DNA of 38,099 nt, taken from the NCBI RefSeq assembly GCF_003334335.1, contig NZ_QOWQ01000042.1; one strand, 5' to 3'. Numbering within the stretch: the first letter of the stretch is position 1; every line of letters begins with the position of its first letter. The translations under genes and the position numbers were made by a program. Below, one piece after another: positions 1,085-8,500 of the stretch. The notes under the pieces are model-generated. The model was not told the origin of the DNA. It saw only the letters and a list, made by a program, of their open reading frames with translations, and ran no database searches. Origin of the DNA: Escherichia coli (GTDB lineage Bacteria; Pseudomonadota; Gammaproteobacteria; Enterobacterales; Enterobacteriaceae).

Positions 1085-3058
1085 TTATGCTGCTACGGCA
1101 TTCACACCAACAGTAAGACTTTCAATCAGCACAGGGTAAGTTGCCGCATTTCCGGTAATATCCGTAATTGCCAGCGCGTTGGCCTCAAAGGCTGCATTCG
1201 TCCATCTGGTCAGCGTAAACGGTTTTCCTGCTGCATTATCAAGCACCGGCGTGACGTTCAGCGAGCCACCACCCGGGAAGCGGAAAGTCAGCGTGTGCCA
1301 GTCGTGACCGAACGGACCATAACTACCAAGCCGCTGTGATGTGGTGTTTGCATGATACATCACATTGATGTTTGTTTTATCAGTCTGCAGATAGAAGGCC
1401 GCAATATAACCCTCCTCTGATTCCGCTCCCGGCCATCCACTACCGCGCCAGTAAATACCCGCAGAATATTGATTTGCAGAAGCATTGAGAGATACATCAT
1501 CGGGGATTTTAAAGCGCAGCGTGATTTCACCGCCGTTATCGAACAGCTCCTTCCCCTTACCGGCATCAATTGCGTGCGATACTTTCCAGGTCTTTTTCTG
1601 TGCAAGACCATTTTCTGGTTTTTCAAGACGAAGGGCTTTTTTACCTGAACCACTGTCACTGACCAGCGTGTTTTTGACATCTGTCAGCGTCCAGCCCTGC
1701 GAAGCCAGAGCGGCATTTTCCGCATTCACATCATAAGCCAGCACTGACTGTATCTTTGTCGGGACAACGGCTTCAGGCTGAGTATCGCCACTCTCCTGTG
1801 CTGGTTGCGATACGCCTCCGCCTGAAGAAACCGCGGCTTTTGTCACTTTCCCGGAAACAAAATCTGCCACTCTGCCCACATGCAGAAGAATGGCTGTTGC
1901 CAGACGGTCGGAAATAATTCCGCGACGCGCCCATGAACCAAAGTGGGTTTTACGATCGGATGTTGTCCAGCTCTTCGCATCCGTTCGTCCACCGGAACCA
2001 TAATACCCGATAGCCGGAATATCCGGGTCTTCTGACGGTTCATTGGTCCCGACTTTCTGACCATTGTCATCCATCATAAACGGCACAAAGAAGATATTTT
2101 TACCGGCTTTGGTTTTGTATGCGCCATAGACGGCATCGTATTGCGCTGAATACGTCTCCTTCCAGTAGTACGTCGTGTCACCACAAATCCAGGGCACCAG
2201 AGAAGGAGAAGCACCAGCGCACTGACCGGATACTCCCGCCAGGTCAGAACGGTATTTTTCCACCATGGCATCAAACATGGCGGGCTGACTGGCGTACGCT
2301 CCCTGTTTTAAATCAAACTCGCCCTGCATCCAGACAACACAAAGCAGTATGTTTTTGGGGTTTGCCTTCAGCGCGGCCTGAGTGCGTGTCAGCAGGTCTT
2401 TATACAACGGCTTATCAACGCCCCATCGTTCAGATTTATCCGACGCTCCTGAACTTTCACTGAACGTTCCGTCAGCACCGGCTGTAAACGCAGAGCCACC
2501 ACGACAGCACGGCACTAACAAAATACCCGCATTTTCCGGCATAAAGGGCAACAGCTTTTTGGCAATATGCAATCCCTGTCCGACACACCCATACTGCTCT
2601 GCGCTGGCTTTCGGATGAGAAAAACGGCTCAAATCCTGCACATCATGCAGGCAGTGGTCCGCCGGAATGATGTCGTTATATGCACAGGCCGCACCACCCG
2701 GTGTCACCGTACTGCGACGCGCCAGCTGTTTAATACGCGGGTCCGGACGGTCATATGTCTCCGGCAGCGGCAGGCCTTCACCATACGCCATGCCGTTTGA
2801 CTGTCCGGCCAGCGCAATGACAAAGTAATATTCTGGTTCAACAACAACAGTCCGGGTACCATCTCCCCCCGGTGAAACTACCGGAGAGGTCATATCCCCT
2901 TCAGCGACTATAGCCTGGATAAATTCAGCACCATAACCCGCGTTTGAGATAATCGGACTACCATAGGGTTGCCAGCCTTCCTTCAGTTTTTGCGTCAGTT
3001 TTCCTGCGAGGTCTGACGGCGATGATGCCCTGACCACGTCATAGTGTTTAAATGCCAT
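1085..3058 (-). CDS. nanS-p: NanS-p-like sialate O-acetylesterase (DUF1737 N-terminus plus SGNH-type esterase), prophage cargo
   Basis: 657 aa from MAFKHYDVVRASSPSDLAGKL, with GGAGG 5 nt upstream of the ATG at 3058. The N-terminus matches the DUF1737 signature of the large ORF that lies between the Q region and the lysis genes in Stx-type lambdoid prophages, as recalled. Confidence 0.8.
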   Translation of the reverse strand: MAFKHYDVVRASSPSDLAGKLTQKLKEGWQPYGSPIISNAGYGAEFIQAIVAEGDMTSPVVSPGGDGTRTVVVEPEYYFVIALAGQSNGMAYGEGLPLPETYDRPDPRIKQLARRSTVTPGGAACAYNDIIPADHCLHDVQDLSRFSHPKASAEQYGCVGQGLHIAKKLLPFMPENAGILLVPCCRGGSAFTAGADGTFSESSGASDKSERWGVDKPLYKDLLTRTQAALKANPKNILLCVVWMQGEFDLKQGAYASQPAMFDAMVEKYRSDLAGVSGQCAGASPSLVPWICGDTTYYWKETYSAQYDAVYGAYKTKAGKNIFFVPFMMDDNGQKVGTNEPSEDPDIPAIGYYGSGGRTDAKSWTTSDRKTHFGSWARRGIISDRLATAILLHVGRVADFVSGKVTKAAVSSGGGVSQPAQESGDTQPEAVVPTKIQSVLAYDVNAENAALASQGWTLTDVKNTLVSDSGSGKKALRLEKPENGLAQKKTWKVSHAIDAGKGKELFDNGGEITLRFKIPDDVSLNASANQYSAGIYWRGSGWPGAESEEGYIAAFYLQTDKTNINVMYHANTTSQRLGSYGPFGHDWHTLTFRFPGGGSLNVTPVLDNAAGKPFTLTRWTNAAFEANALAITDITGNAATYPVLIESLTVGVNAVAA

Positions 3059-3259
3059 TATTCCTCCCGGCAGGGATAGTGTATGCAATCAAGATAAGGT
3101 GCGGGCTGACGTCAGTCATGGACAAGGGTTCAGAAACAGGAGGATGACTACAGCCCGCAATACGAAAAAGACCATACAGTTGCGCAGAGTGATTACTATC
3201 AGGTATTATTCGCCAGCTGAAAATTGATCACTTCACGTTTTGTTGTTTATTCCTTGCCA

Positions 3260-3288
3260 CCCGCGCTTCCCGGCGCGGGCTTTTTTTT
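3260..3288 (+). terminator. intrinsic terminator hairpin readable on the plus strand
   Basis: cccgcgc-ttcccg-gcgcggg followed by TTTTTTTT. Back-to-back with the minus-strand terminator at 3301-3320. Confidence 0.45.
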
Positions 3289-3290
3289 AT

Positions 3291-3320
3291 CCAACAAGAA
3301 AGCCCCTCCGGAGAGGGGCT
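3291..3320 (-). terminator. intrinsic terminator in the late leader (copy 1)
   Basis: Perfect 8-bp stem agcccctc/gaggggct with a 4-nt loop; on the minus strand it is followed by TTCTTGTT. Confidence 0.5.
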
Positions 3321-3560
3321 GGAGAGTAGCGCTATGTACCGTTCATGCATGGTGCAGGGTGCCTCCCGGTGAGTTCAGTATCAGCACCTGAACCCGCACC
3401 AGAAAGGATAAGGGGTGTGACCAAACACCTGTCGCTGATATGCCCCTCCGCACAGGGGGATTCACCATGCCATATTTTTTTAACAAACTTCCCGCTGGCC
3501 AGACAATAATCGCCAGCCTGAATTGTGAGTAACGTGGCATTTTACGGGAAAACTGTTTTC

Positions 3561-3590
3561 TGCAGTAAAAAGGCCCGCCGGAGCGAGCCT
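3561..3590 (-). terminator. weaker terminator-like hairpin (partial repeat copy)
   Basis: aggcccgccggagcgagcct is an imperfect version of the 3301/3784 hairpin; followed on the minus strand by TTTTACTG. Confidence 0.3.
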
Positions 3591-3773
3591 GGAAGGATAG
3601 CGGTCATGTGATGCCGGTTTCCCGGTAACTCAGCATCGGTATCTGAGTCAACGTTTTCTCTACTGGGTCATTTCCGATACGTTCCGCCTTCCGGCAGACT
3701 TTCATCACGTCAGAAAATATAGCACCCTGAGTAACAGGACAGTACTCAGAATTCAGGAAACTGTGACACATCC

Positions 3774-3803
3774 TGCACAGAAAAGCCCCTCCGGAGAGGG
3801 GCT
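3774..3803 (-). terminator. intrinsic terminator in the late leader (copy 2)
   Basis: Hairpin agcccctccggagaggggct identical to 3301-3320; followed on the minus strand by TTTCTGTG. Confidence 0.5.
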
Positions 3804-4315
3804 GAAGTATAGCCTAATTTCTGTCTGTCGCATGGTGCCAGGTGCCTCCCGGTAAATTCAGCCTGGCTACTGAATTTGCATGTTCGCTGGATCATACACT
3901 TTGCCAGATGCCCCGCCGCTGAGGGGGATTCACCACGCGATGCAATTTTTAACAAATTCTCCGGCAGCCAGACAATCATCAAGCTGTGGAATTGTGAGGT
4001 ATTTAAAAATTTCGCAGCCTCTTGCCACCCGCTTTTCACAAAAATCGTATGTAGAAGGCCGCAGCGTAACTATCACTGATGAATTCAGGACACCCAGAGG
4101 CTACGGCTCAGTTTGGATTGTGGCGGCCGGAATCGAACCAGCTCCCATCGGTGCGCTGCCGATTACAATACGCGCGGCGATCCGCTACATGACTAGTATT
4201 TTCACAGTCGCCTGTCTGCTAGCTCGCCATTGAGCTTCACCACAACGATAAGAGCACTGCGCACACCTTTCACCAATTCCACGAGGTCTGCGGGTTCAAT
4301 GCTCTTACCTGTTGT

Positions 4316-4348
4316 GCAAACAAAAAGCCCCGACATTTCTGCCGAGGC
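4316..4348 (-). terminator. tR'-like terminator of the short late leader transcript
   Basis: Minus-strand hairpin ggcctcggcag-aaat-gtcggggc followed by TTTTTGTTTG, then TGCACAACAGGTAAGAGCATTGA, which matches the lambda sequence just past tR' as I recall it. Confidence 0.5.
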
Positions 4349-4455
4349 CTTTACCTAATCTAGCCAGTATGCCGATCCTAAATATTATCGACGACCGAGG
4401 TAAATCAGGATTTCTCTTTCGCTTCTCAGTGCGCTTTTGCTCCGAGCATACACAA

Positions 4456-4484
4456 AACATACTACTTTCATTTCTCGAAAGCAA
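4456..4484 (-). promoter_or_regulatory. candidate late promoter (pR' analogue)
   Basis: Minus strand: TTGCTT, 17-bp spacer, TATGTT, about 30 nt after the Q-position gene stop and about 130 nt before the tR'-like terminator. Motif-based only. Confidence 0.3.
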
Positions 4485-4508
4485 CGCATTTACAAAAAAT
4501 ATTTTGCA

Positions 4509-5123
4509 TCATCCAGCAATCACTAGAAGTTCTTTCTCCAATTCTCGCTTCATTGCATAAAACATTTCTGAATCAAGGACCCTCTCGCACCACACGACCC
4601 GCCTCCGGCAATACTGAATATCAACTCCTGTTATCTGAGAAATCATCCTGGCGATATCTTGCGTGCTGTCGCGATTGCAATATCGCCTAATAGCTACATC
4701 ACGGACAGGGCTTTCACGATGAAAGGTCTCAACCATCACACGTTCAACGAAAGCAGCATCATCGGATTCTTTGGCGAGAGCAATGATATTACCTGCCGAT
4801 GACTGAGGGATGACCAGTTCTCGGGCTTTCTGATGGAGTTCATCTCCACGTAGTCCGTCTTCTTCATACAGACGCATGACAACAGACTCAATCTGCTTAG
4901 CTTTGTCATCGCTCCACTGACTGCGAATCATCAGTCGCCCAATAACGTTAATTGCACCACAAGGAGAATCATCACCAGCGTTAACATTTCCCCATACCTG
5001 TAGCATGTAGTGAACCCATGCTTTCTGACGAGAGTTAATGATTTTCTTCGGATGCCTCCATATGCGGCGGAAATGAGCATCATTAATAAAGTTAACCATG
5101 CCGAATACTGGGGTTAGCCGCAT
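4509..5123 (-). CDS. putative late-gene regulator occupying the Q position (204 aa, C-terminal HTH-like segment)
   Basis: Last gene before the late promoter/leader. C-terminal STQDIARMISQITGVDIQYCRRRV resembles a sigma-region-4/LuxR-type HTH. Not similar to lambda Q as recalled, so the call is positional. Confidence 0.4.
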   Translation of the reverse strand: MRLTPVFGMVNFINDAHFRRIWRHPKKIINSRQKAWVHYMLQVWGNVNAGDDSPCGAINVIGRLMIRSQWSDDKAKQIESVVMRLYEEDGLRGDELHQKARELVIPQSSAGNIIALAKESDDAAFVERVMVETFHRESPVRDVAIRRYCNRDSTQDIARMISQITGVDIQYCRRRVVWCERVLDSEMFYAMKRELEKELLVIAG

Positions 5124-5365
5124 CACAGCCCCCATCCTTTACAATGACACCACACTTCAAACATTCGTTTCACAACTTCACGGCAGTAGAAACCGTCAGC
5201 ATCACGTGTCAGGTCATAGCGATCTCCGTGCTTCAGTCTCATATAGCATTCGAATAATCTGTTCATATACTCTTCGCCATGAACTCCGCTATTACGCTGC
5301 TCATGCGCTTTTCCAGACGACCTGAATAAAGCCATGCGTTCAGGCACCTGCTGAATATCACGCAT
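5123..5365 (-). CDS. hypothetical Cys/His-containing small protein (80 aa) coupled to the Q-position gene
   Basis: MRDIQQVPERMALF...CREVVKRMFEVWCHCKGWGL. Its stop overlaps the next start (TGATG) and its start overlaps the ninH stop (ATGCGTGA). Confidence 0.4.
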   Translation of the reverse strand: MRDIQQVPERMALFRSSGKAHEQRNSGVHGEEYMNRLFECYMRLKHGDRYDLTRDADGFYCREVVKRMFEVWCHCKGWGL

Positions 5366-5558
5366 CAGTAGCTTTCCCCTTATCCCATCCACGATGAACC
5401 ATAAGGACACCGTTGACGACGGCGTGCCGTTTGCCTTCTTTATCACCGACATATTTTCTGACCGTAGCACGATTACAGTTCAGTTTTCGTGAAACTTCAG
5501 TCATATTGCCTCGTGCCTGGATAAGCAATTCCGGTATTGTTTGAATTGTGGCGTTCAT
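5358..5558 (-). CDS. ninH: NinH-like protein
   Basis: MNATIQTIPELLIQARGNMTEVSRKLNCNRATVRKYV...VLMVHRGW closely resembles lambda NinH as recalled. Confidence 0.7.
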   Translation of the reverse strand: MNATIQTIPELLIQARGNMTEVSRKLNCNRATVRKYVGDKEGKRHAVVNGVLMVHRGWDKGKATDA

Positions 5559-5917
5559 ATGTTCTCCAGTTCGGTGATTTTTATCCCCACTCTACCGCCA
5601 AGCACTTTCACGCCGCGAATTACGCGAATGTCATCGAATTGCACGTCGTCTTCCGCAAATCCGGCGTGGATAAGAGAGTCGAGTAAACCTTTCAGGATGT
5701 TATCGAGGTCGCGACGGCGGGAATCTGGTGGTTCAGCAATAATTGTGATGCGAAGTCGTGATTTAGTGAAAATGTCTAATCTGAGTTGCCGGATGATTTG
5801 CTGTACGTCTTTTCGGTATTTCTGGCCTTTATCGCTGATGTAGTACTGGCTTCCCCGTCTTCGCCAGTAGGTATTCACCGTCGGCGGCCAGGGAAGCACA
5901 AACTCATATTCATTCAT
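5555..5917 (-). CDS. rusA: RusA Holliday-junction resolvase
   Basis: 120 aa with LPWPP...RRRDLDN, the RusA family signature. Overlapping stop/start with the flanking genes. Confidence 0.85.
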   Translation of the reverse strand: MNEYEFVLPWPPTVNTYWRRRGSQYYISDKGQKYRKDVQQIIRQLRLDIFTKSRLRITIIAEPPDSRRRDLDNILKGLLDSLIHAGFAEDDVQFDDIRVIRGVKVLGGRVGIKITELENI

Positions 5918-7860: not shown

Positions 7861-8202
7861 ATGTTTACTCTCATAAACTACATTATCGAATACTACAGTG
7901 ACGAGGTTGAAGCTGAGATCCTTTCTCTTCCTGAGACCTTACAAGCCCGGTACATTCGGTACACGGAGAAAATGCGTATTTACGGAGCTAATCTTGGTTC
8001 CCCGCATACAGAGGCATTTGGCGACGGTTTGTTTGAAATCCGCCTTAAGGGCTCGGAAGGCATAGGGCGTGTTTTTTACTGCACGCTAAAAGGAAAGCGA
8101 ATCATTATGTTGCATAGCTTTGTAAAGAAAACGCAAAAAACTCCACCTGCCGAGCTTAGAAAAGCTGAAACCAGAATGAAGGAGGTTAAGCATGACTGGT
8201 AA
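7861..8202 (+). CDS. gp49-like RelE/HigB-family toxin (DUF891-type)
   Basis: 113 aa with GDGLFEIRLKGSEGIGRVFYCTLKGKRIIMLHSFVKKTQKTPPAELRKAE, the gp49/HigB-like motif. Overlaps the downstream HTH gene by 11 nt. Confidence 0.7.
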   Translation: MFTLINYIIEYYSDEVEAEILSLPETLQARYIRYTEKMRIYGANLGSPHTEAFGDGLFEIRLKGSEGIGRVFYCTLKGKRIIMLHSFVKKTQKTPPAELRKAETRMKEVKHDW

Positions 8203-8500
8203 ACGTACCCCACCTACCATGACACACGATGAAATGGTAGAAAAAATGTTGTCTAACCCCGCAGTAAAAGCAGAATACGACGCCATCGCCGATGAATTCG
8301 CACTACTTGATGAAATGCTGGCAGCACGAAAAGAAGCTGGCTTAACCCAGGCTGAAGTTGCTGAACGTATGGGAACAAAAGCGACTGCGATAACCAGAAT
8401 GGAAAGCAATCTTGCATCAGGTACAAGCGGCCCATCATTTGCCACACTGAAAAAATTCGCCCGTGCTACAGGGAAAAAACTCCAGATCCGCTTCGTTTAA
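8192..8500 (+). CDS. XRE-family HTH antitoxin (HigA/gp48-like)
   Basis: 102 aa; EAGLTQAEVAERMGTKATAITRMES is an XRE-type HTH. Toxin-first gene order with overlap. Confidence 0.7.
   Translation: MTGKRTPPTMTHDEMVEKMLSNPAVKAEYDAIADEFALLDEMLAARKEAGLTQAEVAERMGTKATAITRMESNLASGTSGPSFATLKKFARATGKKLQIRFV

Follow-up and report, generated by a model that had tools for sequence, protein, structure and literature searches.

The DNA analyzed here (hereafter the window) is a stretch of 38,099 nucleotides (nt) from Escherichia coli contig NZ_QOWQ01000042.1. On its minus strand it carries, in order, rusA, ninH, an open reading frame (ORF) of 80 amino acids (aa), an ORF of 204 aa, a promoter and a terminator, and then an esterase-like ORF, with the regulator closing the nin region (Table 1). 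The first-pass annotation of this sequence had described two ORFs overlapping by 1 nt in the slot of the late antiterminator gene Q, after ninH and before the late promoter, and its coordinates were confirmed on the minus strand: the A of the TGA that ends the 80-aa ORF is also the A of the ATG that opens the 204-aa ORF (ATGA, in ...CTGTGATGCGG...). A second ATG, at 5135, would give the longer ORF 208 aa, but its homologues begin at the MRLTP or M(K/S/R)RLTP position (family alignment A1), and position 5123 is therefore the likely start. Within ~190 nt 3' of this gene lie a σ70-type promoter, an intrinsic terminator, and, between them, another −10-like element. We consider it probable (roughly 0.78) that the 204-aa gene encodes a Q-type late antiterminator, a divergent member of the Q21/Q933W (DUF1133-like) superfamily, and that the 80-aa ORF is a scar left by a module swap.

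The region is 100% identical to Escherichia phage PhiR5_2 (PV340546.1; host given in the GenBank record as E. coli K-12 MG1655) and is found at 99.9–100% identity in prophages of 18 of 5,426 complete E. coli genomes. Both ORFs carry the label "hypothetical protein" in PhiR5_2 and in all 18 prophage genomes. Among the 72 of 77 PhiR5_2 features inspected, N, cI, cro, cII, and the lysis genes are annotated and no Q gene is; a tblastn search of the window with Q21-type and Q933W-type proteins matched the remnants described below and no other Q.

The 204-aa protein matches PHROG 753, a family described as "anti-termination protein Q-like," with an E-value of 3e-68. The same profile also finds Q21-type proteins, at E-values of 5.7e-10 and 5.3e-11, across their C-terminal two-thirds, and the reverse test, of PHROG 943 against the 204-aa protein, gave an E-value of 0.091 only. 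(Our reference for Q21, the antiterminator of phage 21, was Protein Data Bank [PDB] entries 6JNX, 6JNY, and 6P18–6P1C and Pfam family PF06530 with PF06576/DUF1133.) When alignment A1 was compared by hhalign with an alignment of the Q21 family (A4), residues 28–85 paired with residues 7–73 of Q21 over 58 columns (P = 1.3e-3 to 1.9e-3), and the motif (I/L)T..Q..W...L.LWG is common to the 204-aa family and the N-terminal region of Q21. By eye we had also noted a likeness to Q21 in the pattern CRRxV...(I/V)L(N/D)(A/S)x(L/M)F; a permissive hhalign run aligned the N-terminal segment only and gave no C-terminal alignment to Q21, and so we do not claim it.

The predicted structure points the same way. 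From alignment A1, AlphaFold2 run without templates gave an all-helical model (mean predicted local distance difference test [pLDDT] score, 79), and when it was searched against the PDB with Foldseek the top eight hits were all Q21; no lambda Q structure is among the listed PDB fold matches. Structural neighbors in AFDB50 are named "DUF1133 family protein." Precomputed annotations list PF06576/DUF1133 together with PF06530 on most Q21-type proteins, and when we scanned Q21 ourselves the DUF1133 match was a weak one (E = 0.086). Given the PHROG 753 cross-match, the hhalign alignment, the AlphaFold2 and Foldseek results, and the DUF1133 neighbors, we conclude, on sequence profiles and a predicted model, that the 204-aa protein and Q21 are remotely homologous, the former lying beyond the boundaries of the Pfam families and within the same fold and superfamily. 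The hidden Markov model search against the known Q families that the first-pass annotation had called for was thus negative in Pfam and NCBIfam and positive in PHROG 753. A match to a known Q is clear for Q21 at the level of fold and profile and missing from the Pfam models; this is the outcome that, in the terms of the first-pass annotation, makes the protein ordinary, and the idea of a "distinct" kind of antiterminator is not supported.

A search of PDB sequences gave a different leader. Over residues ~28–100 (window ~5042–4824) the C-terminal domain of ERp29 was matched at an E-value of 5e-3 with the single sequence and 5e-4 with the profile, outranking Q21 by sequence. We treat this as a probable chance likeness of helical segments; ERp29 is missing from both fold searches.

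Both the 204-aa protein and Q21 resemble σ region 4. On an alternative account, the protein would be a σ-region-4-like activator, or an alternative specificity factor for the late promoter, and would act on initiation. We regard this account as unlikely.

In a Q cassette as the literature describes it, the Q gene is followed by a promoter whose spacer holds a repeat, by another −10-like hexamer near +1, and by a terminator that precedes the late genes; the predicted layout here follows that order. The DNA just 3' of the Q-like gene was compared in 82 loci (L001–L082, the viral relatives that carry a homologue of the gene), which yielded 65 distinct sequences. The spacer between −35 and −10 is exactly 17 nt in all 65. 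At −35 the TTG is kept (TTGC in 60 and TTGATT in the other 5), and the −10 is TAnnTT in 64 of 65. The cassette behaves as a real promoter would, since the positions that matter to σ70 (TTG and TA...T) are fixed while their neighbors vary. Within the spacer lies a candidate Q-binding element of the form GAAAT-n-(G/A)AAGT, with a period of ~6 bp, whose location matches that of the TGAGCAAA-TGAGCAAC direct repeat in the spacer 3' of a Q21-type gene; the region downstream of the Q21-type gene of E. coli O157:H7 follows a matching plan, with TGAGCAAATGAGCAAC as the direct repeat in its spacer. The −10-like hexamer TATGCTCGG (TAGGCTCGG, i.e., TAGGCT, in a few) is present in 65 of 65 distinct loci and is followed in most by AGCAAAAGCG. 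The predicted 140-nt leader has a folding energy of −46.7 kcal/mol (z = −3.4), better than 200 of 200 shuffled sequences; phage UPF_BP1 has an equivalent hairpin and T-run 3' of its homologue, and more terminator-like sites lie downstream on the same strand of the window. On this pattern, transcription would start near 4449, from the predicted promoter, and would pause through the hexamer at roughly +15 to +25, and the 204-aa protein would bind the spacer element and permit read-through of the terminator.

Conservation extends well past the −10-like hexamer: the first ~30 nt of the leader, 4421–4450 on the minus strand (TATGCTCGGAGCAAAAGCGaACTGAGcAGC), are conserved, including in L002–L082. 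The short terminated leader transcript might have a function of its own.

Table 1. Features of the Q region of the window and of the DNA on either side of it
Feature	Position	Strand	Description
rusA	5917..5555	minus	Upstream of ninH
ninH	5558..5358	minus	Upstream neighbor; shares 8 nt at its 3' end with the old Q start, an arrangement also seen in Q933W-type phages
80-aa ORF, chimeric	5365..5123	minus	MRDIQQVPERM...KGWGL*
Q933W-type Q 5' remnant	5336..5365	minus	Codons 1–10, MRDIQQV[L/P]ER; continuous with the ninH homology; from DNA alignment to the ninH–Q region of PhiR12_3
Q21-type Q remnant	5274..5338	minus	About nt 72–136, residues 25–44 AWVYSGRLEKRMSSVIAKFM; ~65 nt, out of frame in the 80-aa ORF
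47-aa small gene, PHROG 3871 family	5123..5266	minus	Starts at Met34 (ATG 5266) of the 80-aa ORF
204-aa Q-like gene	5123..4509	minus	MRLTPVFGMV...VIAG*; stop TGA at 4511–4509; probable divergent antiterminator with predicted Q21 fold, PHROG 753
Predicted late promoter (pR'-like)	4456..4484	minus	−35 TTGCTT 4484–4479, 17-nt spacer, −10 TATGTT 4461–4456; supported by conservation pattern
Spacer element GAGAAATGAAAGTAG (family consensus GcGAAATnGAAGTaG)	4462..4476	minus	Candidate Q-binding element; GAAAT and (G/A)AAG near-invariant in 65 loci
Second −10-like hexamer TATGCT	4445..4450	minus	About −1 to +5, 5 nt past the −10; candidate σ-dependent pause element
Intrinsic terminator (tR'-like)	4317..4352	minus	13-bp stem, GAAA loop (4352–4323), U-rich tail
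Rfam STnc100 (RF02076) small RNA copies	3775–3968, 3290–3499, 3564–3739	minus	Two full, one degraded
Esterase-like ORF, 667 aa	1085–3088	minus	About 1.2 kb downstream of the terminator

Several observations weigh against the assignment of the 204-aa protein to the Q21 superfamily and of the downstream DNA to a Q cassette. A Pfam scan of the protein gave no match at E-values up to 10, PF06530, PF06576, and PF03589 included, and NCBIfam had no match either; the method does detect known Q proteins, as a Q21-type control scored 1e-24 on PF06530. By itself, direct sequence comparison gives the link to Q21 weak support (hhalign probability 14–18%, hmmsearch E-value 0.78), the protein is ~40 residues longer than Q21, and segments of the model at about 50–70 and 105–120 are of low confidence. 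The ~6-bp repeat of the spacer differs from the two abutting 8-bp subsites of Q21. A generic promoter scan missed the predicted late promoter, a terminator scan did not list the hairpin downstream of it, and literature searches found no paper on the PHROG 753 family or on late regulation in PhiR5_2. The first-pass annotation is borne out on the lambda question: neither ORF matches any NCBIfam model or any Pfam family, the lambda Q family included, and the slot is not of the lambda type. The candidate late regulator, the 204-aa protein, belongs to a sequence family that lies outside the Pfam and NCBIfam models. Indeed, when 35 aligned members of the family were scanned against Pfam and NCBIfam nothing usable emerged, the best result being an E-value of 0.057 for one member on PF06530, and the label that PGAP gives the protein is "hypothetical."

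The family is narrow and confined to the Enterobacterales. It comprises 214 clusters at 90% identity in a set of 5.8 billion proteins, nearly all of them unnamed or "hypothetical," and 41 representatives at 50% identity in an exhaustive HMMER search of 1.84 billion, a search that produced no bridge to a larger family. Members occur on 329 viral contigs and in 29 of 50,697 deposited phages, including ST64B, ZF40, ENT47670, and UPF_BP1, the last with its Q-like gene in an equivalent genome position.

The 80-aa ORF is built from pieces of three genes. Its first 10 codons are those of a Q933W-type Q (9 of 10 residues identical by tblastn; the intact Q of PhiR12_3 begins MRDIQQVLERWGAW), and the megablast match to Q933W-type phages stops at about window position 5332. 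There follows a fragment of a Q21-type gene, with 92–95% identity to genes that 776 E. coli genomes carry under the name "antiterminator Q family protein." Upstream of this fragment the alignment shows an 8-nt deletion relative to both Q types, and the Q21 residues AWLYSGRLEKRMSSVIAEFM therefore fall in another frame, that of an ORF at 5361..5263 (18 of 20 residues identical by tblastn, E = 2e-7). The 80-aa ORF reads the same DNA as ALFRSSGKAHEQRNSGVHG, so that its residues 11–33 are an out-of-frame translation. The suspicion that the MRDIQ start marks a recombination joint was thus well founded: the Q933W homology that runs through ninH ends ~30 nt into the ORF, and the next ~65 nt are the frameshifted piece of a Q21-type Q.

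The remainder of the ORF is a small gene of 47 aa, whose 3' codons hold a G-rich, Shine-Dalgarno-like run (5133–5129) for the Q-like gene. PHROG 17609 spans the whole of the 80-aa ORF, and PHROG 3871 spans aa 34–77 only. Proteins of the small family are 44–49 aa long, and all 27 of the other aligned members start at the Met34 position. Their invariant positions are F, E, RYD, T, D, G, Y, RE, V, and RM. We rejected a reading of the Cys and His residues of the 80-aa ORF as a metal site, because these vary and none is invariant across the family. We conclude from the sequence that the 80-aa ORF is a scar of module replacement and not a second subunit.

Could the ORF nonetheless be a selected fusion protein, with a functional new N terminus that tunes, for example, Q or the timing of lysis? 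The ninH–Q junction, the old Q start codon, and the region upstream of it have been kept, which makes translation from Met1 plausible. The 80-aa form, identical or with one residue different, is found in the seven closest viral loci; the full region is in the 18 complete genomes; and PHROG 17609 is built on the 80-aa form. All of these copies, however, are at 99–100% identity and essentially one recent lineage, and so they give no evidence of selection. Moreover, the extension consists of 10 codons of another gene and frameshifted DNA, and every other aligned member of the family starts at Met34. We consider a selected fusion quite improbable.

To much the same degree we doubt that PHROG 753 represents a functionally distinct fourth class of Q, in which a Q21 core with ~40 extra residues would recognize an element of ~6-bp period, and the 47-aa protein could tune its activity or timing in an E. 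coli sublineage.

Whether the small gene and the Q-like gene are partners or merely neighbors can be judged from what adjoins the latter elsewhere. In a census of the 80 closest viral loci, the small protein adjoins the Q-like gene in 15, and the other 65 carry unrelated upstream genes (NinZ-like proteins, HNH nucleases, small membrane proteins, and others) whose overlap with the start of the Q-like gene is nearly always 1 or 4 nt; these loci keep the same downstream promoter. Eight loci (L010–L016 and L020), whose Q-like proteins are 86–87% identical to that of the window, have a free-standing 47-aa gene that follows rusA and meets the Q-like gene at the same TGATG junction. UPF_BP1 has its Q-like gene without the small protein. 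In Salmonella, E. coli, and Shiga toxin (Stx) 2a prophages, the most abundant relatives of the small protein sit directly upstream of xis (DUF1233) and int, and the family as a whole is found mostly beside xis-int, far from any Q gene. Since overlaps of 1 or 4 nt with any upstream gene are the rule for the Q-like gene, the ATGA overlap is uninformative as to partnership. With neighbors that vary, a phage that lacks the small gene, and a family based at xis-int, the sequence comparisons indicate that the overlap is ordinary packing of nin-region genes and that the small gene is a roaming module and not a subunit.

The two-component antiterminator raised by the first-pass annotation, in which the 80-aa (or 47-aa) and 204-aa proteins would act jointly and the ATGA overlap would ensure their stoichiometric co-synthesis, is therefore very improbable: the 1-nt overlap is real, and the 47-aa gene and its TGATG junction do recur in a second sublineage, but the census, UPF_BP1, and the xis-int location all speak against it, as do the out-of-frame origin of residues 11–33 and the fact that Q21 works without a phage partner.

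In L018, L025, L027, L046, L051, L052, L073, L074, and L080 the upstream gene encodes a Cys-rich or HNH-like protein of 112–141 aa and overlaps the Q-like start by 4 nt (at about locus positions 2580–3004). Small mobile genes seem to insert often at the junction between nin and Q.

Turning to the DNA between the terminator and the late genes, three copies of the STnc100 small RNA lie on the strand of the late transcript, between the tR'-like terminator and the esterase-like ORF. The full copies score 138.7 and 129.9 bits (gathering score 47) and the degraded copy scores 30 bits. Each ends in a terminator-like hairpin, and a polymerase modified by Q would need to pass all three. The 667-aa ORF beyond has no match in NCBIfam and is named in the phage record "unknown protein encoded within prophage CP-933V"; we take it to resemble the NanS-p type O-acetyl esterases of Stx prophages. 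Those esterases lie downstream of stx, and no stx genes are present in the window. After the esterase-like ORF come the holin gene S and the lysozyme gene R (in the record of PhiR5_2), and lysis genes likewise follow in UPF_BP1.

In Stx phages, tRNA genes are expected downstream of Q. A tRNA scan of positions 2800–4600 found none. At 4119–4139 on the minus strand, GGTTCGATTCCGGCCGCCACA has the look of a tRNA T-arm and 3' end, and ARAGORN and Rfam report no tRNA there; such genes come after Q in Stx phages, and this sequence may be what is left of them. Farther away, a HigB/HigA toxin-antitoxin pair annotated in PhiR5_2 (L001 3101–3629) corresponds to about 7972–8500 on the plus strand of the window, upstream of the nin genes; the early-right genes are on the other strand.

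Taking the 204-aa protein to be a Q-type antiterminator, we can suggest, by analogy with Q21, how it would work. RNA polymerase would initiate at the adjacent promoter and pause as σ70 re-binds the −10-like TATGCT. The 204-aa protein, held on the GAAAT/GAAGT spacer element by a C-terminal, σ-region-4-like helix-turn-helix, would then load onto the paused polymerase, and the modified polymerase would pass the terminator and those that come later to transcribe the esterase-like, lysis, and structural genes.

A history can be proposed as well. A resident Q21/Q933W-type Q would have been cut down to about 100 nt (10 true codons and ~65 nt in the wrong frame), and an incoming cassette, consisting of the 47-aa gene, the PHROG 753 Q-like gene, and its cognate promoter and terminator, would have been joined to the remnant. 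What remains of the old Q is, as it happens, open and in the reading frame of the 47-aa gene. Because the old ninH–Q start region is intact, ribosomes may well begin at Met1, translate the fusion, and so reach the start of the Q-like gene.

The main value of these results is for annotation. A whole family of probable late antiterminators goes undetected by Pfam and NCBIfam and is named "hypothetical protein" in PGAP annotation, and a prophage can therefore seem to be without a Q gene. In Stx-type phages the Q allele and its promoter set the level of late transcription, and hence toxin expression where stx is present; thus, recognizing this allele and its cognate promoter would be useful for typing. 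The locus also shows, base by base, a case of lambdoid phages exchanging a regulator and its DNA target as a unit, with a chimeric ORF left behind that gene callers then report as a protein. Our picture of the mechanism of Q antitermination is unchanged: this is an ordinary module swap involving an under-annotated relative of a known Q.

Finally, we compare the locus with known systems. AlpA of Pseudomonas aeruginosa is an antiterminator (PDB 7XYB) whose structural match to the 204-aa model is much weaker than that of Q21, and it is a chromosomal regulator of programmed cell death and not a lambdoid late regulator. Lambda Q (PF03589) and Q82 have an equivalent role and gene position according to the literature, but the protein of the window has no match to their kind in Pfam. 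The Q933W/QO111-type Q of Stx phages (PHROG 79, and in the Pfam family of Q21) is the source of the MRDIQQV.ER residues and of the ninH–Q junction, and the surrounding phage resembles the Q933W/Stx-phage kind in its 933W-like annotations and in the esterase-like ORF lying ~1.2 kb past the terminator; the intact gene, however, is gone from the window, and the resident regulator belongs to PHROG 753 and not PHROG 79. The closest parallel is Q21. The two share their genome position and, with the roles in the window being read from sequence, the logic of the cassette. They differ in that the proteins are only ~15% identical, at 204 aa here and 162 aa in Q21, in that PF06530 and PF06576 do not recognize the protein of the window, and in the spacer repeat: the Q-binding element of Q21 is a direct repeat of two abutting 8-bp subsites, TGAGCAA(A/C), whereas the candidate element here is GAAAT-n-GAAGT, with a period of ~6 bp.
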